A stretch of DNA of 63,845 nt from an uncultured bacterium (GTDB lineage Bacteria > Patescibacteriota > Microgenomatia > UBA1400 > UBA12108), in NCBI GenBank assembly GCA_903945195.1, contig CAJAUT010000019.1, forward strand, positions 1 to 63,845. The letters run 5' to 3'. The number at the start of each line of letters is the position of its first letter. Positions within the stretch are counted from its first letter, which is position 1. The notes below the pieces were generated by a model. That model was not told the origin of the DNA, ran no database searches, and was given only the letters and a program-made list of their open reading frames with translations. This document shows positions 6,430 through 62,446 of this stretch, piece after piece. A program made the position numbers and the translations under genes.

Positions 6430-7843
6430 GGGTCCTACCCCCTTTATCCTCTAGGTGATATCCCAGCTTTTCGATATCTTGCCTTATCTTGTCAGCTTCA
6501 TCATAATTTCTCATCTTGCGCATGTTCTCCCTCTGTTCTATCAGCTTCTCGATATTTTCTGGGATTGCAGCACCATCTTTACTGATAGGTTTATCAAGTT
6601 GTAAACCTAGTACTCGATCAAACTGCATCATCATGTCTACCTTGTCATAATTTGGGATATTAGATTTAGCCATTTCCCATAGGACGGCTAGAGCCTCACT
6701 CATATTCAAATCATTTTCTATGGCCGCTGTAAATTTATTCTGAAAAGCCTCGATTTTCTCCATCTTTTCTTCCGACAAGCTCACCCTCTCCACCCCGTCT
6801 ACCTTGGTGTTTTGGTAAAGCTCTCTAAGCTTGGTCAAAGCAGTTGCGGCTGAAGCAAGACTATCCCAGGTAAAGTTGATTTGTTTACGATAATGCCCTG
6901 TCAGATAAAAATAGCGTAACGCGAGAGGATCTATGCCTTTAGCAGCTATGTCTGCGATCGTGTAAGCATTGCCTAGCGACTTGCCCATACGACCTCCATC
7001 AACTAGCAGGAATGCCCCGTGCACCCAAGTCTTTACAAAAGGTTTCTTGCCCGTTGCCCCTTCTGCCTGAGCGATCTCATTTGGGTGGTGAGTACTACGC
7101 AAATCTTCGCCTCCAGCATGGATATCAAACTGGTCACCCAGATATTTGGTAGACATAGCGGAACACTCTATATGCCAGCCGGGAAATCCTACTCCCCATG
7201 GGGACTCCCACTCCATCTGACGCTTGGTGCCATCAGAGGGTGAAAATTTCCACAAAGCAAAATCTCGTGGATTCTTTTTCTCTGGATTAGGCTCTAGTCG
7301 TGCCCCTTTCTTCATCTCATCTAGATTAGATAGCTCGCCGTATGTAAAACCCTTTGCCTCAAATGCTAAGGTATCAAAGTATATGCCATCTGATATTTTG
7401 TAAGTCAAACCATTGCTTTCTAGCTGTTGCACCATCACGATCTGTTCAGGGATATGATCCGTTGCTTTACATACGACCGTTGGCATCTCGATATTCATCA
7501 TCTTCATCTGAGCCATAAACTCATCGCTATATCCTTTGGCAATATCCCAAGCCGTCTTACCTTCTTTTTTAGAAGCTTTTTCTAGTCTATCTTCACCCTG
7601 ACTACTATCTCCCTCATTATCCCCGGTGAGGTGTCCTACATCAGTCAGATTCATCACTAGTTTGACTTCGTAGCCTACATACCTTAGCGCTCTAGCCAGT
7701 ACATCAGACAATGTGTAAGTACGAAAATTGCCGATGGTCGCAGTTGAATAAACAGTTGGACCGCAAGTGTACATCCCAATCTTGCCAGCCTCTATAGGAA
7801 CAATCTCTTCTACCTGTCTACTGAGTGAGTTATATAGTTTCAT
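6413..7843 (-). CDS. cysS: cysteine--tRNA ligase
   Basis: Class I aaRS with a HIGH-region variant (ATIGNFRTY) and KMGKS (KMSKS-type), plus a typical CysRS core (WHIECSAM). Confidence 0.95.
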
Positions 7844-8359: not shown

Positions 8360-8386
8360 ACATATAACTATACCCTATGTATTAAA

Positions 8387-8490
8387 GGTTTGATCTTGTA
8401 GGTTGCAAGCTAATTCAAAACCTACTAGGTCAGACCTTGAAGGTGTATTTCAAATATTTTGAAGACCAGGTCAGACCCTAAAGGATATTT
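8387..8490. repeat. GGTCAGACC-core palindromic repeat, locus R1
   Basis: Degenerate left arm GGTTTGATCTTGTAG (8387-8401) pairs with CTACTAGGTCAGACC (8422-8436). A second AGGTCAGACC unit lies at 8468-8477. The locus ends at the stop codon of 8491-8703. Confidence 0.6.
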
Positions 8491-10425: not shown

Positions 10426-10460
10426 ATAGGATATTGTATCTATCTAGTATGTGAGCCACA

Positions 10461-10575
10461 AGGTGCAGGTGAATATCACAGTCAAAAAAAATTGCGCAGG
10501 CCGGGCAGGTCGAGAACTAGGCCAATTTTTCAACAGAAAATATGGCCGATTTTTTGCGTGATGTACACCGAACCT
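10461..10575 (+). ncRNA. structured intergenic element, copy X (family of two with 36709-36826)
   Basis: Conserved blocks CACAGTCAAAAAA and TTTTTTGCGTGATG. The outer arms are complementary and show compensatory changes relative to copy Y. An internal hairpin plus T6 run forms a plus-strand intrinsic terminator. The strand call is tentative. Confidence 0.45.
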
Positions 10576-10595
10576 AAAGTGCGAACACGATTGTT

Positions 10596-10935: not shown

Positions 10936-12201
10936 TCAACTTGTGAAAATTGCCATTGCGTCATCTATTGTATCATCCTGCACCTCATTAGCTTTCGGTT
11001 TAGGTGGTGATATCTTCTCGCCCGACTTGAGTTTCTCCTTCATGATTTGCCAAGGAGACTTCTCTTCCTCTTTTTGCATCTGAGATTCTAGTTCCGATCT
11101 TTGCGCGATTTTAGGCGATAGATCGGAACTTTGCAGTTTTGATTTGAGAATTGGACCTGCCTGCGCCGGCAGGGAATTTATGATTTGAGAATTACTCTCA
11201 GTGTGGCCACACCACTCTACTATCGCCACTTGGATCAGAAGTTCCCCGTCCAGACTAGTAGCCAGTCTCCTAGCCACCTCATCCAGTGCAAAAATAAATT
11301 TAGACACTTCTATCTCCACTTCACTATTTAAAAGTTTATCTCTCAGCCCTCTCATGATCGACACAATCAGATAACTCATATCCACCCCGTTTGAGGTAGC
11401 CTCACTCAGTTGTTTTAGAGATTCTTTTACATCTCTTGATGCTAAAGCATTTACAAGGATCGTAACTTTGTAATTTGAACTTCCAGATACCACTAGCTCT
11501 ATATCAGATAGCTCTACACTATCAGCATTGGATAGTACCTGATCCAGTATCTTCACCCCGTCGCGAAACGAGCCATCAACCGCTTTAGACAGATACTCTA
11601 GCGCTTCACTACTCACTTTCTTGCCCTCACCCTTTATCACCCGCGCAAAAGATCTCTGCATCTCATCACTTGTTGCTTTTGTAAACTGTATCTGTGCACA
11701 CCTAGAGACAATAGTTTCTGGGACTTTGTGCAGTTCTGTCGTACAAAGGATAAATAGCGAGTGGCTTGGTGGCTCCTCCAGGGTCTTTAAGAGCGCGTTA
11801 AAAGCCTCAGTCGTAAGCATATGCACTTCATCGATGATATAGACTTTGCGAGGCAGTACAGCCGGCGCTAGGCGAATTTTTTCTTTTAGTTCCCTAATGT
11901 CATCGATACCGCGATTAGATGCGGCGTCAATTTCAATCACGTCCATAGCGCTACCATCGAGGATCGATTTACAGGCGCTACACTGATTGCACGGCTCTCC
12001 CAGTTTCCCTGAATTTTTTTCGCAGTTTACTACCCTGGCGAGTACTCGGGCAGTACTGGTCTTGCCAGCACCACGAGGACCAGTTAGTAGGTAAGCATGC
12101 CCCACATTGCCAGATTTGACCATGTCATTTAGGACTTTACGCACGCCTGAGAGATCTAATTCATCAATTGTCTTGGGTCTGTATTTGAGATAAAGATTCA
12201 T
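10936..12201 (-). CDS. dnaX: DNA polymerase III subunit gamma/tau (short form)
   Basis: Walker A GPRGAGKTS, a Zn module (CEKNSGKLGEPCNQCSACKS), Walker B IIDEVHML and the SRC motif (VSRCAQ). Confidence 0.93.
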   Translation of the reverse strand: MNLYLKYRPKTIDELDLSGVRKVLNDMVKSGNVGHAYLLTGPRGAGKTSTARVLARVVNCEKNSGKLGEPCNQCSACKSILDGSAMDVIEIDAASNRGIDDIRELKEKIRLAPAVLPRKVYIIDEVHMLTTEAFNALLKTLEEPPSHSLFILCTTELHKVPETIVSRCAQIQFTKATSDEMQRSFARVIKGEGKKVSSEALEYLSKAVDGSFRDGVKILDQVLSNADSVELSDIELVVSGSSNYKVTILVNALASRDVKESLKQLSEATSNGVDMSYLIVSIMRGLRDKLLNSEVEIEVSKFIFALDEVARRLATSLDGELLIQVAIVEWCGHTESNSQIINSLPAQAGPILKSKLQSSDLSPKIAQRSELESQMQKEEEKSPWQIMKEKLKSGEKISPPKPKANEVQDDTIDDAMAIFTS

Positions 12202-15219: not shown

Positions 15220-15283
15220 ACCTTCAAGGTCTGACCTTGTAGTCATATTGTCTTATTAAGATTCCTACGAGGTCAGACCTTAT
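15220..15283. repeat. GGTCAGACC-core palindromic repeat, locus R2
   Basis: ACCTTCAAGGTCTGACCTTGTAG ... CTACGAGGTCAGACCTTAT inverted arms. The right arm ends 9 nt before the tsf stop codon (15289-15291), the same spacing as R3. Confidence 0.65.
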
Positions 15284-15288
15284 GGGAA

Positions 15289-16995: not shown

Positions 16996-17751
16996 TTATT
17001 TACATAAATAAACTGCATTTTGCATAAGACACGCTATTGTAACAGGTCCGATGCCTCCTGGCACCTCTACAGACACACTTGCCTTGTCATAAGCATCTCT
17101 CGCCATATCTCCCCGCGGCGCTCCTACATCTATAAGTATCACACCATCTCTTACCATATCCCCTGTCACCACACCTTCTTTTCCCACACAACTAATCACG
17201 ATGTCACCTTGCAGTACCAAATCCTTGGCATTTTGAGTATCTGAGTCGACTTTTATTACCTCTTTCCCCATTTTCTCTAATTCTAGACATGTCGCACTCC
17301 CCACAAACCCACTAGCTCCTATCACCACAAATTTCTCTGGGTTTCCCCCTATCTTCTCCACCACATCGAGTATTGCCTTAACGACTGGTGGTACTACACC
17401 CGACTCTGGATATCTGAGTCCATCCACATCTTTGTTTAATGGGATAGTCTCAAGTATATCCTTCAGCGCCTGTCCCGAAATGCCAGGAACTGGGAGTTGC
17501 AACATAATACCTGTTACTTCATCTCTCTTGGCTATCTCTTCAATCTCATTACCTAATAAATCTAGCTTTACTATCTCAAAGTCGATTCCTACTCGCTCTG
17601 CCGCTGCTTTCTTGAGTTTGGTATAGAGCGCACTAGCTGGATCATCTCCCACAAGAACGCTTACTATCCTAGGTTTTTTTGCAAGGATCGTAACTTTGTT
17701 TTTTACTTTAGCCTCTATTTCCTCTGCAAATGCTTTTCCATCAAATTTCAT
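16996..17751 (-). CDS. folD: methylenetetrahydrofolate dehydrogenase/cyclohydrolase
   Basis: FolD layout with DGKAFAEEI at the N-terminus, VVIGASGFVGS dinucleotide fold and the GGIGPVTIA block. Confidence 0.85.
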   Translation of the reverse strand: MKFDGKAFAEEIEAKVKNKVTILAKKPRIVSVLVGDDPASALYTKLKKAAAERVGIDFEIVKLDLLGNEIEEIAKRDEVTGIMLQLPVPGISGQALKDILETIPLNKDVDGLRYPESGVVPPVVKAILDVVEKIGGNPEKFVVIGASGFVGSATCLELEKMGKEVIKVDSDTQNAKDLVLQGDIVISCVGKEGVVTGDMVRDGVILIDVGAPRGDMARDAYDKASVSVEVPGGIGPVTIACLMQNAVYLCK

Positions 17752-19310: not shown

Positions 19311-19339
19311 TTGACTCATGCGTGCAGATTTCTTAGAAA
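19311..19339 (+). promoter_or_regulatory. sigma70-type promoter for glyA (TTGACT-17-TAGAAA)
   Basis: TTGACT at 19311-19316, a 17-nt spacer and TAGAAA at 19334-19339. The predicted TSS near 19346 lies just before the 49-nt hairpin element. Confidence 0.45.
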
Positions 19340-19348
19340 TTTTCAGCA

Positions 19349-19397
19349 CGCAACCATCCATCTGGGCAGCCAGATGACGATGTGAGTACTGCAAAAT
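19349..19397 (+). promoter_or_regulatory. 49-nt hairpin leader element, copy A (glyA 5' UTR)
   Basis: CGCAACCATCCATCTGGGCAGCCAGATGACGATGTGAGTACTGCAAAAT. The stem is CATC-CATCTGG / CCAGATG-(AC)-GATG. It matches 39422-39470 at 46 of 49 positions. Confidence 0.55.
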
Positions 19398-25050: not shown

Positions 25051-25059
25051 TCCTATAAC

Positions 25060-25088
25060 TTGACATTTCCCCACTTCAATGCTAAGAT
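25060..25088 (+). promoter_or_regulatory. canonical sigma70 promoter TTGACA-17-TAAGAT
   Basis: TTGACA at 25060-25065, an exact 17-nt spacer and TAAGAT at 25083-25088. Sits about 370 nt upstream of the lipoprotein ATG. Confidence 0.5.
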
Positions 25089-25094
25089 CCGAGA

Positions 25095-25460
25095 GCTTTA
25101 ACAGGCTCATTGGTTACTCACTTTTTTTACTTCAGAACCAGCATGTTAAAGCCAGAGGCGAAGGGGCCCCTGTTAAAGTTTTTGGCAGTTTTATTACTAC
25201 CAAAATCTTAGGCCCCTTCACCTCTGATCCAAAAGATCAGACTCGTCAAAGGTGACTGTGTGACATTGCGTCACAATAGTCGCTCACAAACGAGGCACTT
25301 TAACAAGCAAATACGTACAAAATGTTTTTGTCATGGATTTCTCCATATCTGGAGGACTCCCCAAATAGCGGATAAATTATTGTCCCTTATTTAAGGAGTC
25401 TTTCAGACTTCCCACGGCACGGAACCGTAAAAAAACCGAATCTTCTCAAGGAGAACACCC
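25095..25460 (+). promoter_or_regulatory. long structured 5' leader with four CTTTAACAGG-type sites
   Basis: Sites at 25095-25105 (+), 25142-25153 (-), 25169-25178 (-) and 25298-25307 (+). A 15-bp stem pairs AGAGGCGAAGGGGCC with GGCCCCTTCACCTCT. There are several smaller hairpins. SD AAGGAG lies before the ATG at 25461. Confidence 0.4.
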
Positions 25461-26431: not shown

Positions 26432-27766
26432 ATGAGGCAAACACTGCAGTACCTCACAGGCTCCCTCTTCGCTATAGCCATCCTGCTATTTATCTTTGTC
26501 GTGCCCTCACACACTTCTCTCCCCATCTTTATCCTCTTTATCACCTTGTTTCTCCTGATCCAGGGTTACTTGGCCACCCGCTCTATGCTATTTGGGTTCA
26601 ATCATCGCCCTGCAGCTAGCATACCTCCACACGCAGCTACTCGCAGCTTCACACTCATCGTCCCAGCTCGGGATGAATCAGAGGTGATCGGCCATACCAT
26701 CAATACCTTGTCTGCGCTTGAATACCCCAGAGATCTCTACGAAGTCCTCGTCATGATCAGAGCCGATGATTTTGCCACTATTGCCGCTGCCTCACGCGCT
26801 ATTTCAGACTCGGGAGCTGACAATATCAAAGTAGTACAAGTAGACGGAGATGCAAACAACAAGTCCTACTCCCTAAACATCGCGCTTCATGTAGCTAAGC
26901 ATGAAATTATCGGCATTTTTGACGCCGAGGATGAGCCCCACCAGACAATCTTGCAGAGAGTCAACGACTTCATGCTCGCCCATCCAGATTCACTAGCAGT
27001 CCAGGCACCAGTACACCTAGTCAATCTAAATAGTTCTTGGTTTAGCAGCTTGAGCGCGATCGAGTATTACTACTGGTTTACCTCCTCCCTACCCTTTTTT
27101 GCTACCAAAAACATCGTACCTCTAGGTGGCAACACTATCTTCACAAAAAAAGAAATCTACCAAAAACTGGGCATTTACGACGAATCATGCCTGACTGAAG
27201 ACGCTGATCTAGGTATCCGCCTGGCCGTACAAAATATCAAAGTCGGCATAATAGAAGATCTCTCTATAGCTACCCTAGAAGAATCGCCAACAAATGAACT
27301 CGAAGTCATCCGCCAAAGAGCCCGCTGGGACCAAGGATTTTTCCAGATCATCGAAAAATCGGACTGGACTGGCTTGTCAAAAAATCAAAAGTTTTATGCG
27401 CTCTACATCCTGACCCAGCCTATCTTCCGCCACTTGAGCTTCCTAAACATGGTCTTTGCCCCACTCCTGGCAGTATATGGCACTATCCCATTTTGGATCG
27501 TATTTGTCTCGTTTATACCTGGATATTTCCTCATACTTCAACTAGGTCTTTATCTACTTGGGTTATCAGCTTTAGCTAAACAGCATCAAATCAATATCTC
27601 TCCTTGGCGTTATGTGACCACACTCCTTGCCTTTATCCCTTACCAAGCCTTACTTACTCTTGCCACGCTCCGTGCTATGGGCAAGATGATCATTGGAGAT
27701 AACTCTTGGGACAAAACCGATCACAGCAATTCACACCGCAAAGGCCTTGCTATACTAAATTCATGA
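26432..27766 (+). CDS. integral-membrane family 2 glycosyltransferase (processive synthase type)
   Basis: DAEDEP and QRARWDQG (Q-x-x-RW) motifs, with TM helices at both ends, as in cellulose, chitin and PNAG-type synthases. Confidence 0.85.
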   Translation: MRQTLQYLTGSLFAIAILLFIFVVPSHTSLPIFILFITLFLLIQGYLATRSMLFGFNHRPAASIPPHAATRSFTLIVPARDESEVIGHTINTLSALEYPRDLYEVLVMIRADDFATIAAASRAISDSGADNIKVVQVDGDANNKSYSLNIALHVAKHEIIGIFDAEDEPHQTILQRVNDFMLAHPDSLAVQAPVHLVNLNSSWFSSLSAIEYYYWFTSSLPFFATKNIVPLGGNTIFTKKEIYQKLGIYDESCLTEDADLGIRLAVQNIKVGIIEDLSIATLEESPTNELEVIRQRARWDQGFFQIIEKSDWTGLSKNQKFYALYILTQPIFRHLSFLNMVFAPLLAVYGTIPFWIVFVSFIPGYFLILQLGLYLLGLSALAKQHQINISPWRYVTTLLAFIPYQALLTLATLRAMGKMIIGDNSWDKTDHSNSHRKGLAILNS

Positions 27767-29733
27767 AAAAATATTTTTTACCTACACTCATTTTTTTCAT
27801 TGCAGCCTCCGTTGCGCTGTTCAATATCTCAGGTTTCCCCAAAATGATCGGTGACGAAGGTATCTACGTCTCACAAGCCTATTGGCTCTCTCATTTTGGC
27901 CATCTTGGGCCTTATACCTACTGGTACGACCATTTCCCTCTTGGCTGGGCCCAGATAGGCTTATGGCAGCTCCTCACAGGTGCCACTGGGTTCTTTAGTA
28001 GTGCAGTGCTCTCTGCTCGTGTTTTTATGGGTTTGGTACTAGGTGGCACCACCACTCTCTTATATCTGCTAGCCAATAAGCTCACAAATTCCAAGATATT
28101 GTCATTTACCTCGGTCTTCATATTTATCATGAGCTCGCTCACTCTTACTTTTGGGCGGATGGTACTGCTCGACAATTTAGCCATTTTTTGGTTTTTACTC
28201 AGTCTGCTGTTACTCATAAATAATCCCAAACAGATCAAGAACCTTGCTCTTTCAGGACTCGCATTAGGTCTTAGCATTCTGACCAAAGAGTCACTACTGT
28301 TCTTTTTGCCACCCTACCTATATCTGGCTTACTACTTAAATAAAGACAACATTCACTCTAAATATGCCCTCCTAGTCAGCTACGTCACCATCTTTTTTAT
28401 CCTAGGCTTCTTCCCGCTACTAGCAATTCTAAAAAATGAATTTTTGCCCCAAGCAAATCAGGTATCACTTCTGGGTACAATCCTATTGCAAGCAGGCAGA
28501 GGCTCTGAAATACCATTTTATCTCGAGGGTTCACACTTCCGCCAGATGCTTAGTGTCTGGCTTAGCATCGACCCAATATTGCTAATTGTAGGTAGTATCT
28601 CGACTATAGCCACGTTATTGTTTGGCAAAGCACTCACTCGCATCCTCAGTCTCTTTACTATCTTTTTTACACTATTTCTTGTTCGTGGAGGTCAAATATA
28701 TGACTTTTATCTGATCCCACTCTTACCGCTTTTTGCTCTCAACTTCGCTCTCTTTTTACACAATCTTGCTCCTTTCAAAAAGGTATATTTTCTCAGTTTC
28801 CTCTTTACTTTGATACTTGGATTCTACGTAGCGACAAACTCTCTCTACCCTTGGACTTCACAAGCCACATCAGCCCAAAAAGAAGCGATAGATACGCTCA
28901 TAGATCTCGGGCCAAAAGCAGTCATTGCCGCTCCAGACTATACTTTTCTAGATGTATATCTATCTGATCCATCCACCTCTATCAGCTGGTACAGAAAAGT
29001 AGAATCAGATCCAGCAGTCAGATTTTCTGTGGGTAAGGTGACAAATATTCTTACAGACAACCAATTCGACAACGAACTCACCGGAGGTGAACTACCATAC
29101 CTTAAATCTCTCATCCAAAACAATAAACCCGCTGCCAAATTTGGAAGCCTTCTCTCTCCAGGAGAAATCACAAGACCTTACACCCAAGAATTCTTAAATC
29201 TCTACAACCTCGAAGCACAAAATAATACTGTCGAAACTATCATCTCCTTGCAAACCATAGATTCAAACTCTCTATCAAGTTACCAGGCAGATCCCCCACA
29301 CGCAATTCTAGTTAACAAAGAGAATTTTAGTAGCTCGCTAGATCTGCAAAACAAACTCCTGCTTATCAAAACCATATTGCCTACAACCGAGATATTAGTA
29401 TCCCAAGATAGCGAAGGTCACAACACCATACCCTGGATAAGCACCAACGCCCGTAGTTTTTTCAAATCAAAAAATGAGGCCATAGATGCCACACTGCGCA
29501 AAACAGAAGCGTTAAAAGGACTTGGTTTTACTAGTGTCATAGTCGCAACTACTAAAAACGATGATGGATATCTAGATTCTATTCTCACAGCCACAAAATC
29601 CCATCTCATCCCATATCTCTTCTACACTGTCACAATCCCAGAATTTGCAGAAAATGTCATTGTAAGCACGGAATCTGATCTAGAAACACTAAAAAAATCC
29701 AACTTTGCCGGAAATATCTATCTTACTGATTAA
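27763..29733 (+). CDS. GT-C fold glycosyltransferase (PMT/ArnT-like) with large C-terminal extracytoplasmic domain
   Basis: The start ATG overlaps the GT2 stop (ATGA). The first-loop GDEGIY motif is DE-type. More than 10 TM helices, then a soluble domain of about 270 aa. Confidence 0.7.
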   Translation: MKKYFLPTLIFFIAASVALFNISGFPKMIGDEGIYVSQAYWLSHFGHLGPYTYWYDHFPLGWAQIGLWQLLTGATGFFSSAVLSARVFMGLVLGGTTTLLYLLANKLTNSKILSFTSVFIFIMSSLTLTFGRMVLLDNLAIFWFLLSLLLLINNPKQIKNLALSGLALGLSILTKESLLFFLPPYLYLAYYLNKDNIHSKYALLVSYVTIFFILGFFPLLAILKNEFLPQANQVSLLGTILLQAGRGSEIPFYLEGSHFRQMLSVWLSIDPILLIVGSISTIATLLFGKALTRILSLFTIFFTLFLVRGGQIYDFYLIPLLPLFALNFALFLHNLAPFKKVYFLSFLFTLILGFYVATNSLYPWTSQATSAQKEAIDTLIDLGPKAVIAAPDYTFLDVYLSDPSTSISWYRKVESDPAVRFSVGKVTNILTDNQFDNELTGGELPYLKSLIQNNKPAAKFGSLLSPGEITRPYTQEFLNLYNLEAQNNTVETIISLQTIDSNSLSSYQADPPHAILVNKENFSSSLDLQNKLLLIKTILPTTEILVSQDSEGHNTIPWISTNARSFFKSKNEAIDATLRKTEALKGLGFTSVIVATTKNDDGYLDSILTATKSHLIPYLFYTVTIPEFAENVIVSTESDLETLKKSNFAGNIYLTD

Positions 29734-36592: not shown

Positions 36593-36708
36593 GTGCTCTC
36601 CATCCTATACGAAAAATCCCTAAAGACGCAAGACATCAAAAAAGATCAGCCATACAGAAAACTGTAAATTAAAATTTTTGGTGGACACTAATAAACAATT
36701 TCTGAAAA

Positions 36709-36826
36709 AGGCACAGGCACATCTCACAGTCAAAAAACATTACGCACCCCGCTATTGCGGGGGAGTTAGAGGCGGCTGGCCACCAGGCCAGAACGCCGTT
36801 TTTTTGCGTGATGGTGTGCCGAGCCT
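36709..36826 (+). ncRNA. structured intergenic element, copy Y (family of two with 10461-10575)
   Basis: Same conserved blocks as X. Inner hairpin CCCCGC/GCGGGG. A hairpin at 36771-36797 followed by T7 forms a plus-strand intrinsic terminator. Lies between the topA stop and the nrdJ start. Confidence 0.45.
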
Positions 36827-36836
36827 ATGAAGAAAT

Positions 36837-38798
36837 TTACTCTGTAGCTTTAGCTGGCAACTTCCACGCCGCCCACTTACAATTAGGATAATTCTCACAC
36901 CCAAAAAACTTCGCACCTTTTTTCGACTTCATCGCCCGCACCCGTCCCCCATCAGTTGGACACACGACGTCTTTGACATACTCTATATAAGGTTTGGTAT
37001 ATTTACAATCTGGATAGGTGGAACAAGATAGGAACTTCCCAAATTTGCCTGTGCGGATCACAATCTCACCTTCTGGACAATCTGGACATTTCTCCCCTGT
37101 CGACTGCACCTGCACCTTGACCCGCTCCCCAGTCTCTTCCACTATTTTCACTTGTGCAGCAAGTGGATCCCAAAATTCACGTACCGTCGGCACCCACAGC
37201 TTTTTACCTTCGGCTATCAGATCTAGATCCTTTTCCATCTTGGCAGTAAATTCATATGCGAATACTTGGCCAAAATTGGTGACGAGGAAGTCTACAACAG
37301 CTTCGCCAATTGCAGTAGGATGAAAAGATTTTTCTTCCTTGACCACGTAACCTCTGTCTTGGATAGTAGAGATGATAGCAGCGTATGTACTAGGCCTACC
37401 TATCCCTCTTTTTTCTAGCTCTTTGATGAGTCCTGCCTCACTATAGCGGGCAGGAGGATTGGTAAATTTCTGCGTTGGATCCACTTTAACCAGTGAAAGT
37501 GGATCATTCACTTTAAGTTCTGGCAAAAATACATCATCAGCCGTCTTGCCTAGTTTTAGGTAACCATCAAAGATCATTCGTTTGCCATCAGCTTTTAGTA
37601 AATATGGTTTACCCTGAGCCTGCCGAAGGGCTTCCACCAAAATACTTGTCTTATCAAACCTAGCATCCGCCATTTGACACTGCAGGAATCTAGAACGGAT
37701 CAAGTCATAAAGTTTTTGATGACGCGAAGTCATACCAGCAGCCGTTAGATCACTCCCCATACGAGTCACATCAGTTGGACGGATCGCTTCATGAGCTTCC
37801 TGTGCGCTAGCCGACTTTGTTTTGTATACTCTTTTTTCAGCAGGTAAATACTCTGCCCCGTATGTTTTGGTCACAAAGTCACGCGCCATCGCGATAGCTT
37901 CATCAGCTAGATTGAAAGAGTCTGTACGGTGATAAGTGATGTATCCATGCTCATATAGTGACTGGGCAATCTGCATAGTCATCTTGGCGCTCCAGGAAAA
38001 TACATTGGATCCTGCTCGCTGGAGCAAAGAGGTGGTAAAAGGAGGAAATGGAGAACTATGCTGTTCTACTTGCTCTATATCACTGACTTTGTAACTTGCA
38101 GTTTGAAGATCCGAAATGATAGTTTTAGCTAGCTCACCATTTGAGATCTTCGCTGGCTTACCATCTATTTTGTATAGTTGTACTCTAAGCTCTTCTTTAG
38201 CTTTCAAATCTACAAAAATCTCCCAGTATTCTTCTGGCACAAAAGCCCTGATCTCTCGTTCTTTATCCACTATCAGTCGCACCGCCACCGATTGCACGCG
38301 TCCAGCCGATAGTCCTCTACGCACCTTTTTCCATAGCACTGGCGAAAGCGTATAGCCTACGAGTCTATCTAGCACGCGCCTAGCTTGCTGAGCATTGACC
38401 ATCGGCATGTTTACTTCACCTGGATGCTTTAGAGCTTCTTCGATCGCAGTTTTGGTGATTTCGTGAAAGGTGACGCGTTTAAAAATCTTTTTCTTGTCAG
38501 TGCCAAGTAGATACTGCACGTGATACGAGATGGCTTCTCCCTCGCGGTCAGGGTCAGTAGCCAGATACACGACATCTGCATCTTTGGCTAGTTTTTTCAG
38601 CATCGCCACCTGCGCTTTCTTATTTGAAAGTACTTGGTAGTTGGGCTCAAAGTCATGGTCGATGTCGATTGCTAGTCCCCCGCCTTTTTCTGGCAGGTCG
38701 CGCACATGCCCCATCGAAGCCTCGATTTTGTACTTACCGCCAAGGAATTTGGTCAGTGTTTTCGCTTTGGTTGGTGACTCGACTATTACTAAATCCAT
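36837..38798 (-). CDS. topA: DNA topoisomerase I
   Basis: Toprim N-terminus (LVIVESPTKAKT), catalytic Tyr block ITYHRTDS and C-terminal Cys4 zinc ribbons. Confidence 0.95.
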   Translation of the reverse strand: MDLVIVESPTKAKTLTKFLGGKYKIEASMGHVRDLPEKGGGLAIDIDHDFEPNYQVLSNKKAQVAMLKKLAKDADVVYLATDPDREGEAISYHVQYLLGTDKKKIFKRVTFHEITKTAIEEALKHPGEVNMPMVNAQQARRVLDRLVGYTLSPVLWKKVRRGLSAGRVQSVAVRLIVDKEREIRAFVPEEYWEIFVDLKAKEELRVQLYKIDGKPAKISNGELAKTIISDLQTASYKVSDIEQVEQHSSPFPPFTTSLLQRAGSNVFSWSAKMTMQIAQSLYEHGYITYHRTDSFNLADEAIAMARDFVTKTYGAEYLPAEKRVYKTKSASAQEAHEAIRPTDVTRMGSDLTAAGMTSRHQKLYDLIRSRFLQCQMADARFDKTSILVEALRQAQGKPYLLKADGKRMIFDGYLKLGKTADDVFLPELKVNDPLSLVKVDPTQKFTNPPARYSEAGLIKELEKRGIGRPSTYAAIISTIQDRGYVVKEEKSFHPTAIGEAVVDFLVTNFGQVFAYEFTAKMEKDLDLIAEGKKLWVPTVREFWDPLAAQVKIVEETGERVKVQVQSTGEKCPDCPEGEIVIRTGKFGKFLSCSTYPDCKYTKPYIEYVKDVVCPTDGGRVRAMKSKKGAKFFGCENYPNCKWAAWKLPAKATE

Positions 38799-39343: not shown

Positions 39344-39421
39344 GTAAGAATTGTACCATTCTATCGAGAAGACTCCTCTATAAAAACCATATAAAAGCTG
39401 ATTGGAAAATAATTTTAAACC

Positions 39422-39470
39422 CGCAACCATCCATCTGGGTAGCCAGATGACGATGTGAGGATTGCAAAAT
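39422..39470 (+). promoter_or_regulatory. 49-nt hairpin element, copy B (orphan copy between dprA and pth)
   Basis: CGCAACCATCCATCTGGGTAGCCAGATGACGATGTGAGGATTGCAAAAT, matching copy A at 46 of 49 positions. The upstream AT-rich GAAAATAATTTTAAAC resembles the region before copy A. Confidence 0.5.
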
Positions 39471-40340: not shown

Positions 40341-40586
40341 TTATCTTTCCTGTTCTCCACATCTTCCGACATGGTTTTTTGCATCTACCCATCCAGAAAA
40401 TGGCCAAATTCTAGCCATAATTGGACACTCACTTGCTACAATTTGCCCAGCCACCAAAATGTTCAATCCAGATCTATCACCTTCTTCATTATCTGTAATA
40501 GCTGGAGCACACTCTTTTCGGAAATGGCAATCACCTTGGCAATACTTGCCCGCTAATCTAGATGTAGTAAAAAATTTAACTGTCAT
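40341..40586 (-). CDS. small Cys-containing hypothetical protein (81 aa)
   Basis: Contains a CQGDCHFRKEC pattern. No SD. The start lies only about 17 nt after a terminator hairpin. Confidence 0.35.
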   Translation of the reverse strand: MTVKFFTTSRLAGKYCQGDCHFRKECAPAITDNEEGDRSGLNILVAGQIVASECPIMARIWPFSGWVDAKNHVGRCGEQER

Positions 40587-40597
40587 ATTTTATTCCA

Positions 40598-40636
40598 TAA
40601 AAAAACCCGCCTCTTGGTGCGGGTTTGTGTTGTTTT
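40598..40636. terminator. bidirectional intrinsic terminator
   Basis: ACCCGC (40605-40610) pairs with GCGGGT (40619-40624), flanked by an A-run upstream and a T-rich run downstream. It therefore reads as a hairpin plus U-tract on both strands. Confidence 0.55.
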
Positions 40637-40701
40637 GCTTTTTAATTAAGCTTTTTTACACCAAACCCACATCTCCCCAAATAAGGAGGTGTTTAACGGT
40701 A

Positions 40702-40758
40702 ATGGTTGTAAAACGAGCTGTGTTTTTCATAACTTTTGTTAGTATCGCAAAATATTAA
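40702..40758 (+). CDS. candidate 18-aa hydrophobic mini-ORF (MVVKRAVFFITFVSIAKY)
   Basis: AAGGAGGTG at 40683-40691, 10 nt before the ATG. Bracketed by hairpin elements. A 24-codon ORF (40656-40730) lies antisense. Speculative. Confidence 0.2.
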   Translation: MVVKRAVFFITFVSIAKY

Positions 40759-40790
40759 CGCTGTGACAATATATCAAACCATGTCAAATA

Positions 40791-40880
40791 TATAAGGTCT
40801 GACCTGCTAAGGAGACGAACGAAGTGAGTGTTTAGTCGAATCCTGAGCTTGGCGAAGGAGAGACCAGGTCAGACCTTATA
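40791..40880. repeat. GGTCAGACC-core palindromic repeat, locus R3
   Basis: Perfect 14-bp terminal inverted repeats: TATAAGGTCTGACC (40791-40804) and GGTCAGACCTTATA (40867-40880). The GGTCAGACC core of the right arm ends 9 nt before the stop codon at 40885. Confidence 0.7.
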
Positions 40881-40884
40881 GGTA

Positions 40885-54023: not shown

Positions 54024-54962
54024 ATGAACCTCATCTTTTTTGGCGCAGACCAATATTCTGCAGTAGCTCTCCAAACTATCCTTGCCGCTAGCCTTCCGGG
54101 AGACTCCCGGCAGGTTCAGGTAGTCACCGACAAACACGAAGGTGGCTCACCTGTCGAAAAACTCGCCAAGGAACACAACCTAAATGTCTCCTACTACCCC
54201 ACCCTCCCAGATCTATCTGGTGCCATCGGCCTCTGCGCCTCATTTGACCACTTGATCCCTCAAGACATCATCGCCCAATTTGCAGGCAATCTATACAATC
54301 TCCACCCATCCCTTTTGCCACAGTACAGAAATGTCTCCCCTGTTCAGTACGCGATCGCCCTAGGCGACAAGGAAACTGGTATCACCCTCTTTCGCATCTC
54401 CCCAGGTATAGATGACGGAGAGATTATCGCCCAGTCCTCAGAGCCCATCCTAGAGTCAGATACGACCGCCACCCTTACCCCTCGACTATTTAAAAAAGGT
54501 GCCGAATTGTTCCTAAGTTACGATCCTTGTAAACCAAGCAATATTTACAAGGATCGTAACTTTGCAATCCCAGCCGAATCCCTCATCTTTACCCGCCGTC
54601 TCACCCGCGATTCTGGCTTTATCGACTGGGTAGTACTAGAAAAGCTCCTCACAGGCAAAAAAATCGAAGCCACAGAAACCAATAATGGATTACTCAACTT
54701 GCGCATCACCCACAATCCTGATGGCAATATTCTAAAAGATCTCCTGCGCGCCCTCACCCCCTGGCCTGGTATCTGGAGCCTCGTACCTACCAAGAAGGGC
54801 GAGTTGCGAATTGCTCTTGTGATTAAAGGGTCTGACCTTACAGGAAGTGCCCAACCCGCAGATTCAAAGGCGGGAAGGTCAGACCCTGAAGGTATTCAAA
54901 TCCTCATCTCAGGAAAACACAAAGCTATATCTCTTAAAGATTTCACAAAATATTATTTATGA
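54024..54962 (+). CDS. fmt: methionyl-tRNA formyltransferase (carrying an in-frame repeat insertion)
   Basis: The HPSLLPQYRN motif, an N-terminal formyltransferase fold and a C-terminal domain interrupted by the R4 repeat. Confidence 0.9.
   Translation: MNLIFFGADQYSAVALQTILAASLPGDSRQVQVVTDKHEGGSPVEKLAKEHNLNVSYYPTLPDLSGAIGLCASFDHLIPQDIIAQFAGNLYNLHPSLLPQYRNVSPVQYAIALGDKETGITLFRISPGIDDGEIIAQSSEPILESDTTATLTPRLFKKGAELFLSYDPCKPSNIYKDRNFAIPAESLIFTRRLTRDSGFIDWVVLEKLLTGKKIEATETNNGLLNLRITHNPDGNILKDLLRALTPWPGIWSLVPTKKGELRIALVIKGSDLTGSAQPADSKAGRSDPEGIQILISGKHKAISLKDFTKYYL
54826..54901. repeat. GGTCAGACC-core palindromic repeat, locus R4, in frame within fmt
   Basis: GGTCTGACC (54829-54837) ... CCCGC/GCGGG inner hairpin ... 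GGTCAGACC (54877-54885), plus a CTGAAGGTATTCAAAT tail as at R1. Translated as KGSDLTGSAQPADSKAGRSDPEG. Confidence 0.7.
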
Positions 54963-59476: not shown

Positions 59477-59547
59477 AGGCCTGTCGTTCAGCGGTAGGAC
59501 TCTTCTCTCCAAAAGAAGTAACGAAGGTTCGATCCCTTCCGGGCCTG
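59477..59547 (+). tRNA. trnW: tRNA-Trp (anticodon CCA), no encoded CCA end
   Basis: Folded by hand: acceptor AGGCCTG/CGGGCCT, D arm GTTC-AGCGGTA-GGAC, anticodon arm CTTCT-CTCCAAA-AGAAG, T arm GAAGG-TTCGATC-CCTTC, discriminator G. Confidence 0.85.
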
Positions 59548-62270: not shown

Positions 62271-62285
62271 AAAATCTCCTGATTA

Positions 62286-62323
62286 GGGTGACTATCTAAT
62301 CAAGAGATTACTGGTAGTCACCC
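62286..62323. promoter_or_regulatory. 9-bp perfect inverted repeat GGGTGACTA-N20-TAGTCACCC upstream of the RHH gene
   Basis: Arms at 62286-62294 and 62315-62323, located 16-53 nt upstream of the ATG at 62270. Confidence 0.35.
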
Positions 62324-62336
62324 ATTTTTAGACAAC

Positions 62337-62368
62337 AAAAAAAGCCGCGACCTAAACTGGTCTCGGCT
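62337..62368 (-). terminator. intrinsic terminator after the repeat-protein gene
   Basis: On the minus strand, AGCCGAGACC-loop-GGTCGCGGCT (one mismatch) is followed by T7. Confidence 0.5.
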
Positions 62369-62446
62369 ATATTGCTCGTTATTAAGATAATAATATCACA
62401 AATCTAAGAATAAATCCATTAATGAATTAATATTGATATATCAATC

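Follow-up and report, generated by a model that had tools for sequence, protein, structure and literature searches.

An undescribed, clade-restricted family of structured intergenic repeats in Microgenomates/Woesebacteria-like bacteria

The window analysed here is a stretch of 63,845 nt from an uncultured bacterium (contig CAJAUT010000019.1 of assembly GCA_903945195.1). Its RecR protein has the affinity of a Microgenomates/Woesebacteria-like CPR bacterium, with 93% identity to RecR of the best public MAG. Two related elements lie in intergenic spacers of the window, both on the plus strand. Copy X (10460-10576) sits between the start of recR (10425) and the stop of ybaB (10596), and copy Y (36708-36827) sits between the start of a gene for a 725-aa ribonucleotide reductase-like protein (36592) and the stop of topA (36837). 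All four of these genes are encoded on the minus strand. The spacers measure 170 nt around X and 244 nt around Y, and they stand out because the rest of the genome is tightly packed, with spacers of typically 10-40 nt. A preliminary description of this DNA had reported that X and Y align end to end, that both carry two conserved blocks, and that their outer arms differ by compensatory changes. Each of these points held. The pairwise alignment runs from end to end and both copies were recovered by a covariance model (104.9 bits for X and 99.6 bits for Y, E about 1e-25 in both cases). Each of the blocks TCACAGTCAAAAAA and TTTTTTGCGTGATG is present in the window exactly two times, once in X and once in Y. 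When up to two mismatches are allowed, about 0.6-0.7 block matches are expected by chance, and near-matches at 29585, 52714 and 54649 fall inside coding sequence and were dismissed as chance. The compensatory pairs can be read from the sequence as AGGT/ACCT in X against AGGC/GCCT in Y, and as GGTG/CACC against GGCAC/GTGCC. A covariance-model search of the window with filters off returned X and Y alone.

On the plus strand X and Y share a common fold in which a long closing stem, P1, encloses two hairpins, P3 and P2. The predicted folding energy is -39.6 kcal/mol for X (z = -3.6) and -63.2 kcal/mol for Y (z = -6.7). In X the 5' arm of P1 (AGGT-GCA-GGTGAATATCACAGTC, 10461-10483), which is hypervariable in the family and still paired, folds onto the 3' arm (GCGTGATGTACACC-GA-ACCT, 10556-10575). 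Between the arms lie an A8 run (10484-10491) that pairs with the T-run, the short GC hairpin P3 (GGCC-GGGCA-GGTC, 10499-10511), the 12-bp bulged hairpin P2 (10520-10547), which is supported by covariation and has the loop C-AACA-G where the family consensus is C-ACCA-G, and a T6 run directly 3' of P2 (10550-10555). In Y the arms of P1 occupy 36709-36731 and 36806-36826 and P3 occupies 36747-36762 (CCCCGC-TATT-GCGGGG), while P2 (GGCGGCTGGCC-ACCA-GGCCAGAACGCC), a single G and a T7 run together occupy 36771-36805. Copy Y also has an outer extension of P1, in which AATTTCT (36697-36703) pairs with AGAAATT (36831-36837), the latter overlapping the topA stop codon; the same extension is present in the orthologues L185 and L190. 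Folding thus agrees with the earlier observation that the 3' inner hairpin is followed on the plus strand by T6 in X and T7 in Y. The resulting unit is terminator-like, and the T-run recurs in all copies of the family. A strict terminator scan did not call either P2 hairpin because the stems hold a bulge or internal loop.

A promoter-like sequence, TTGTGG-N17-TACAAT, lies beside copy X on the minus strand (10433-10461). It overlaps the last two bases of the element and ends 7 nt before the recR ATG, an arrangement that suggests a putatively leaderless recR mRNA. A strict promoter scan did not call the site. It is kept in those relatives that have any hairpin insert in the ybaB-recR spacer, and it is missing where the junction is empty.

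Homologues were collected from protein-anchored orthologous spacers in genome and metagenome collections, and later with a pattern for the core. A covariance model built from 10 copies matched first 19 and then 50 copies at E < 1e-8, so that the covariance-model search proposed in the preliminary description did find further members. The 50-copy set comprises the window and loci of close relatives, where gene calls were crude longest-ORF calls and MAG contigs were mostly short. The strict core pattern occurs in 35 stretches among 185,579 species genomes, 33 of which come from one clade. The carriers are at least 11 related Microgenomates/Woesebacteria MAGs together with metagenome contigs of relatives, the single richest MAG holds at least 13 copies, and at least five different sites are occupied. 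The exact two-block pattern of X and Y had 0 matches in genome contigs, the blocks being specific to a subfamily, and the viral contig, phage and plasmid collections gave no match to the family. At the gathering threshold Rfam returned nothing for the whole window other than a tRNA at 59477. With X and Y and their flanks at E <= 10 it returned noise (e.g. isrD with 13.8 bits against a threshold of 37), and the earlier statement that the element resembles no known RNA family stands. We conclude that X and Y are members of an undescribed, clade-restricted, interspersed family of structured non-coding repeats, and we regard this conclusion as secure. We propose the name 'ACCA-loop element' for this repeat of about 115 nt, which in our preferred reading is something other than a stand-alone RNA gene.

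Each copy forms a three-way junction made of the closing stem P1 and the hairpins P3 and P2. Along the element strand the 5' half consists of the P1 5' arm, A4-8, (N)ATTRCGCA, P3 (e.g. GGC-loop-GCC) and GAG-NNNN-AGG, and the 3' half consists of P2 (12 bp with one extra base and a C-ACCA-G loop), CCG, T4-7 and the P1 3' arm. The C-ACCA-G loop is found in 48 of 50 copies, with CAACAG in X. The A-run, present in all 50 aligned copies, pairs with the equally conserved T-run to bracket the core, and each of the three central A:U pairs is kept in 47-50 of 50 copies. The stems of P3 covary (GGCC, GCGC and CCCCGC are examples), and a distant subfamily has a long P3 with a GCTG loop. The core of about 70 nt is 69% identical among copies, whereas the P1 arms, at 36% identity, are close to random; they form 21 sequence classes and yet remain paired in every copy. 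Several arm classes coexist among the contigs of one MAG. The variable core noted in the preliminary description is therefore a property of X compared with Y; across the family it is the core that is conserved and the outer arms that vary, the reverse of a classical MITE.

Several further ideas about this architecture were discarded. We considered whether the core had inserted into pre-existing palindromes, such that the arms would derive from the target, and rejected this because one arm class recurs at unrelated loci (X, Y, L105, L173, L178, L180, L191 and others). Pairing between the junction variants ATTAC/GTTAG and ATTGC/GCAAC had no consistent complementarity, and these variants were treated as linked haplotypes. 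Likeness to a kink-turn, a T-loop, SRP RNA or a dif/XerC arm was unsupported on inspection by eye.

The preliminary description had argued for a selected structure, and the 50 homologues bear this out. In their alignment 87.7% of the cells assigned to pairs are paired, compared with 67.2% after shuffling, and the covariation score is 0.480, compared with 0.146 for shuffled alignments (0 of 500 shuffles reach 0.480) and 0.04-0.11 when the pairing partners are slid. Double-sided changes occur in 34 of 39 pairs. Within P2, 97% of cells are paired and 9 of 11 pairs have double changes. The P2 stem varies freely in sequence (ATTTTGC, ATTCGCC, CTGGCC and others), and thus what is kept is the pairing and not a protein half-site. 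The alignment was fitted by the structure model on the plus strand and copies within subfamilies are non-independent. The observed score is far above both sets of controls, and we regard it as secure that the three-stem fold is maintained by compensatory change.

A look-up of the exact YbaB protein gave the loci L195-L204, of which L195 is the window's own contig. Four of these (L196, L199, L200 and L203) encode the identical YbaB protein from ybaB DNA that is 88-95% identical, and have a ybaB-recR gap of 9 nt. Their empty junction reads TAA-AATTTTGCC-ATG and contains neither the element, nor the promoter-like site, nor a duplicated target. The identical YbaB protein is likewise encoded in L197, L198, L201 and L204, and in L201 and L204 a gene for a 133-aa nucleoside deoxyribosyltransferase-like protein is inserted between ybaB and recR on the opposite strand. 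Among the ybaB-recR spacers of relatives (L001-L011, L081-L105 and L195-L204) there are further copies of the element, empty junctions and at least five unrelated hairpin-forming inserts, making this junction a hot spot. In L202 the arms and flanks match those of X almost base for base around a GC-rich core that is about 90% like that of Y, which we read as a core swap between paralogous copies or alleles. At a second site, too, orthologues have common arms and different core haplotypes, and orthologous copies of Y lie at the topA-nrd site in L190 and L185. Comparison of these close relatives shows copies that were evidently gained and lost and cores that were exchanged.

Some copies also carry a structured insert of 77 nt nested in the junction and flanked by a duplicated TTA (L192:4693-4889, L178:579-774, and L167:2030-2330 and 6930-7230). 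It occurs in copies of two different arm classes, and this points to a separate small cut-and-paste element as well as to core exchange among copies. For the ACCA-loop element itself, no target-site duplication was found at the filled compared with the empty ybaB-recR junction, and no general direct repeat was found in the flanks of the 50 copies. GCGAG-like direct repeats were examined as candidate duplications and rejected, since they are confined to the X-type subfamily and are missing from the empty site and from other subfamilies. No clean-ended insertion or excision junction was found; the sole filled/empty comparison differs over the whole 170-nt spacer, promoter-like site included. Between genomes, the recR 4-fold sites are 40% identical, the element core at the ybaB-recR site is 67% identical, and arms within one arm class are 82-91% identical. 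Thus, either the element is under purifying selection or its copies are much younger than the species splits, having arrived by spread or conversion.

The window contains other repeats and structures in addition to this family. Long intergenic hairpins at 8385-8490, 15220-15288, 40790-40884 and 54873-54893 belong to another palindromic repeat family, which is built on ACNAGGTCAGACCTT and unrelated to the ACCA-loop element; the first of these positions, downstream of recR, is a site occupied by the ACCA-loop element in several relatives. A 60-nt direct repeat that is 90% identical (19338-19397 and 39411-39470) has an internal CATCTGG/CCAGATG hairpin and adjoins gene starts. The 26-nt palindromic motif ATTTACAAGGATCGTAACTTTGTAAT is found at 11449-11474, 17677-17702 and 54543-54568 with 85-96% identity, and all three copies are inside long ORFs, dnaX included. 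The 410-nt intergenic region at 25051-25460 holds several long near-perfect hairpins (-155 kcal/mol on the minus strand) and had nothing in Rfam beyond a spurious miRNA match; from its predicted fold it may be another palindromic-repeat cluster or an unrecognised RNA. An ORF is present at 26432-27766.

Most copies have their 3' end 0-21 nt away from an opposite-strand stop codon, and the next gene after the element is 9-170 nt further on. The window has a very strong GC skew (-0.20 on the plus strand), and its GC3 skew is +0.27 in minus-strand genes and -0.48 in plus-strand genes. Since these two values are opposite in sign, the skew is tied to the DNA strand and to replication, and it can serve as a strand marker in this clade. 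Measured along the element strand, local GC skew is below zero at all 50 copies (-0.125 to -0.295). Among them are three loci whose two neighbours are both encoded on the same strand as the element (L170, L173 and L175) and three independent convergent sites (L189, L184/L162 and L171). The element strand is the C-rich strand, which is taken to be the leading-strand template, as skew and gene-strand bias are usually read. Orientation therefore follows replication rather than transcription, because the element occupies the C-rich strand in every copy even where the flanking genes are reversed. GC skew serves here only as a stand-in for the replication strand, and replication and transcription can be told apart in about six contexts, so that the support for a replication-strand rule over gene direction is real but modest. 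If orientation were set only by the avoidance of operon polarity, sense copies would be predicted at the ends of leading-strand operons and antisense copies among lagging-strand genes. None of the former was found among about 40 copies with both neighbours on the opposite strand, and none of the latter was found either. The terminator-like unit faces transcription head-on to replication in all 50 copies. The earlier claim that it points against every flanking gene is true of X and Y, and fails in the wider family, where at least three copies match the orientation of both neighbours.

Compared with its complement, the element strand has the more stable predicted fold in 44 of 48 copies under RNA parameters (mean difference -4.9 kcal/mol) and in 48 of 48 copies under DNA parameters. 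This difference resides in P1, where it stems partly from G-U/G-T pairs (71 in P1b compared with 17 A-C) and partly from purine-rich internal loops that are common within subfamilies. The predicted asymmetry is suggestive rather than decisive, because the copies of a subfamily have these loops in common and a plus-strand model was used to fit the alignment. We infer that it opposes the mutational skew, which should place G-T on the other strand. In P2 and P3 nearly all pairs are of the Watson-Crick type; the count for P2 is 533 Watson-Crick, 1 G-U and 1 A-C, despite heavy covariation. Helices of RNA families seldom lack G-U pairs to this extent when they covary so heavily, and the pattern is compatible with stems that fold as DNA or that have to fold on both strands.

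Known systems provide partial parallels. In chromosomal integrons, attC bottom strands on the leading-strand template stabilise the arrays, and the folding strand has this position in 25 of 30 sedentary chromosomal integron arrays (PMC5371416). Like attC sites, the ACCA-loop element has a conserved structure with free stem sequence, an imperfect stem with recurrent bulges and one folding strand, it is of similar size (attC sites are 57-141 nt), and its folding strand is on the leading-strand template, here in all 50 copies. There are also differences. The element lacks RYYYAAC/GTTRRRY core sites, its stem bases being AAGG..CCTT, AGAG..CTCT, ATTTG..CAAGT and others; it occurs as single copies among housekeeping genes, whereas attC sites lie in cassette arrays beside an integrase (intI); and its apical part is conserved where that of attC is variable. 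The resemblance to attC is thus one of logic and not of membership.

For IS200/IS605 elements, the orientation of the hairpin-bearing element is tied to the replication fork (PMC5027513). Together with PATEs and REP/REPIN (RAYT, HUH Y1), they resemble the present family in having hairpins recognised by shape, no target duplications and a fork-tied orientation. PATEs and REPINs are also short, non-coding and multi-copy, and the conserved extra-helical base and loop of P2 are a further likeness. However, the elements of this group lack a long closing stem that joins their ends, and the active strand of IS200/IS605 is on the lagging-strand template whereas the better-folding strand here is on the leading-strand template. 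PATEs insert 3' of a fixed tetra- or pentanucleotide, and here no flanking motif is fixed across subfamilies. REPs are palindromes of 20-40 nt in hundreds of copies, unlike the three-way junction of about 115 nt described here, which has no GTAG-type head. No RAYT/Y1/TnpA-like gene was found in 1.6 Mb of loci, a partial and weak test that used an approximate query.

ERIC, Correia (CREE), BOX and RUP are structured intergenic repeats of roughly 100-150 nt from enterobacteria, Neisseria and pneumococci, and they can bring promoter or terminator activity as a side effect. The ACCA-loop element recalls them in size, intergenic setting, long hairpin and tens of copies per genome. Their terminal repeats are conserved, and Correia elements have TA duplications. 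To our knowledge, no report on these families describes hypervariable arms that stay paired on either side of a conserved core, or an orientation bound strictly to the replication strand. The P2 hairpin, GC-footed and directly before T4-T7 on the element strand, also resembles an intrinsic terminator, and differs in that it is embedded in a larger conserved fold, has a conserved loop and mostly faces away from the neighbouring genes. Overall, the family appears closest in logic to attC and HUH-type hairpin elements, and closest in size and setting to ERIC, Correia and BOX. It is a structured or palindromic interspersed bacterial repeat outside every named family, because it lacks core sites and cassette arrays, a GTAG head, conserved termini, target duplications and a found enzyme.

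What such a repeat does can be read in several ways. The preliminary description had offered a small-RNA gene family or a REP/MITE-like element, and the part of this that stands is the repeated, structured family. A small-RNA gene family would produce a plus-strand transcript, antisense to most neighbours, that ends at P2 and its U-run and acts through the ACCA loop or the junction. The plus-strand terminator looks canonical, the better fold of that strand in 44 of 48 copies and the loop kept in 48 of 50 are what an RNA would show, covariation is strong, and the lack of a match among known families would make it a possible new one. Nevertheless, a scan of the copies found no sigma-70-like promoter at a constant spacing 5' of the element on the element strand. 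A -10-like hexamer in the right range is present in 6 of 48 copies and is more frequent on the opposite strand, different loci have unrelated 5' flanks, and a search by eye of the arms and core on both strands gave partial -35/-10 pairs (e.g. TGCGTAATGT on the minus strand) that are not conserved across subfamilies. Furthermore, the P1 3' arm lies 3' of the terminator-like T-run, and therefore an RNA ending there could not form P1, the best-supported helix. The absence of a promoter and the extension of P1 past the terminator make a small-RNA gene less likely, as do the near-lack of G-U pairs in P2 and P3, the presence of at least 13 copies in one genome of roughly the 1-Mb class with site occupancy that differs between close relatives, and an invariably head-on orientation that would be odd for expressed genes. 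Taken together, we consider this reading quite improbable. A classical MITE, with the P1 arms as terminal inverted repeats for a DDE transposase acting in trans and arm covariation arising from the need of both ends to match the transposase, is very improbable. The element is indeed small, non-coding, multi-copy, intergenic and polymorphic for presence, and the TTA-flanked nested insert indicates that cut-and-paste elements exist in these genomes. Yet the arms are the least conserved part, with several of their classes in a single MAG, and the interior is the conserved one; target-site duplications are absent from the filled/empty junction and from around most copies; the inner hairpins covary with arbitrary stems, so that pairing is what is selected; strict replication-strand orientation is unexpected for DDE MITEs; and no parent IS was seen in the collected loci.

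An alternative in which the host has domesticated the element as a cis-acting module is unlikely. Such a module would be a one-way terminator or insulator against antisense (head-on) transcription, or a stable hairpin in the sense mRNA through which the 3' end of the upstream message is protected or processed. This would account for the closeness of the element end to opposite-strand stop codons in most copies and for a terminator-like unit that always faces head-on transcription. At the three same-strand loci the unit is placed where those genes need a terminator, and the conservation of copies at orthologous sites far exceeds that of synonymous sites; canonical hairpin and T-run terminators are used elsewhere in the organism (62271-62446 and 40557-40884). 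However, the element is dispensable at ybaB-recR, because relatives with an identical YbaB protein have the two genes 9 nt apart and no element, and in other relatives the same site holds five unrelated hairpin inserts. The RNA strand relative to the neighbours is not fixed, which argues against a sense-mRNA role, and a terminator needs neither a 25-bp closing stem nor a conserved loop. 

The reading we prefer, to which we assign an even chance, is that of a non-autonomous repeat whose active or mobile form is a folded single strand of DNA. We infer this mechanism from the fold, the orientation and the turnover of copies. The higher identity of orthologous-site copies than of 4-fold sites (67% compared with 40%) counts against it, as this also fits a host-beneficial function, and tblastn with an approximate IS200 TnpA query against the 1.6 Mb of loci, a weak test, gave no match to a mobilising enzyme.

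Under the single-stranded DNA reading, the folded strand would be recognised by its shape together with the conserved core, and the element would spread or survive in this way. Its orientation could arise by strand-specific insertion at the replication fork, for which IS200/IS605 is a precedent although the active strand there is the opposite one. Alternatively, copies could be preferentially lost when their folding strand is the one on the exposed lagging-strand template. The precedent here is the attC site of chromosomal integrons, whose stable orientation places the folding strand on the leading-strand template. The simple analogy of 'peel and paste' fails, because the better-folding strand is on the leading-strand template, opposite to IS200/IS605. 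As a by-product, each copy would set a terminator-like hairpin against head-on transcription while leaving co-directional operons readable, and the head-on-facing P2 and T-run may simply be tolerated or may have been adopted for a benefit. Bolder, and in our judgement unlikely, is the proposal of a new class of shape-recognised single-stranded DNA element whose core is read by a CPR recombinase or replisome-associated protein, or else of a fork signal adopted by the host. In the former case the core of about 70 nt would be read and the closing stem left free, with insertion, parking or removal at the fork fixing the strand. In the latter the element could be a site for priming, for restart or for stopping head-on transcription.

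A limited full-text literature search found no description of interspersed structured repeats in CPR bacteria and no relevant literature on MITE-type elements in CPR; for repeat orientation relative to the lagging strand it found general precedents only. The genomes of CPR/Patescibacteria are small, tightly packed and poorly understood. The strongly covarying structure reported here can be added to libraries of RNA and DNA motifs, ending its rediscovery as a 'candidate sRNA'. Because its orientation matched GC skew in all 50 copies, it offers a natural marker of replication direction for fragmentary MAGs. The family explains the existence of both 10-nt and 170-250-nt intergenic spacers in these genomes, as well as the coming and going of promoter-bearing spacers between formerly coupled genes such as ybaB and recR. 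Finally, it offers a system other than integrons and IS200/IS605 in which structure-based, strand-specific genome dynamics can be tested.
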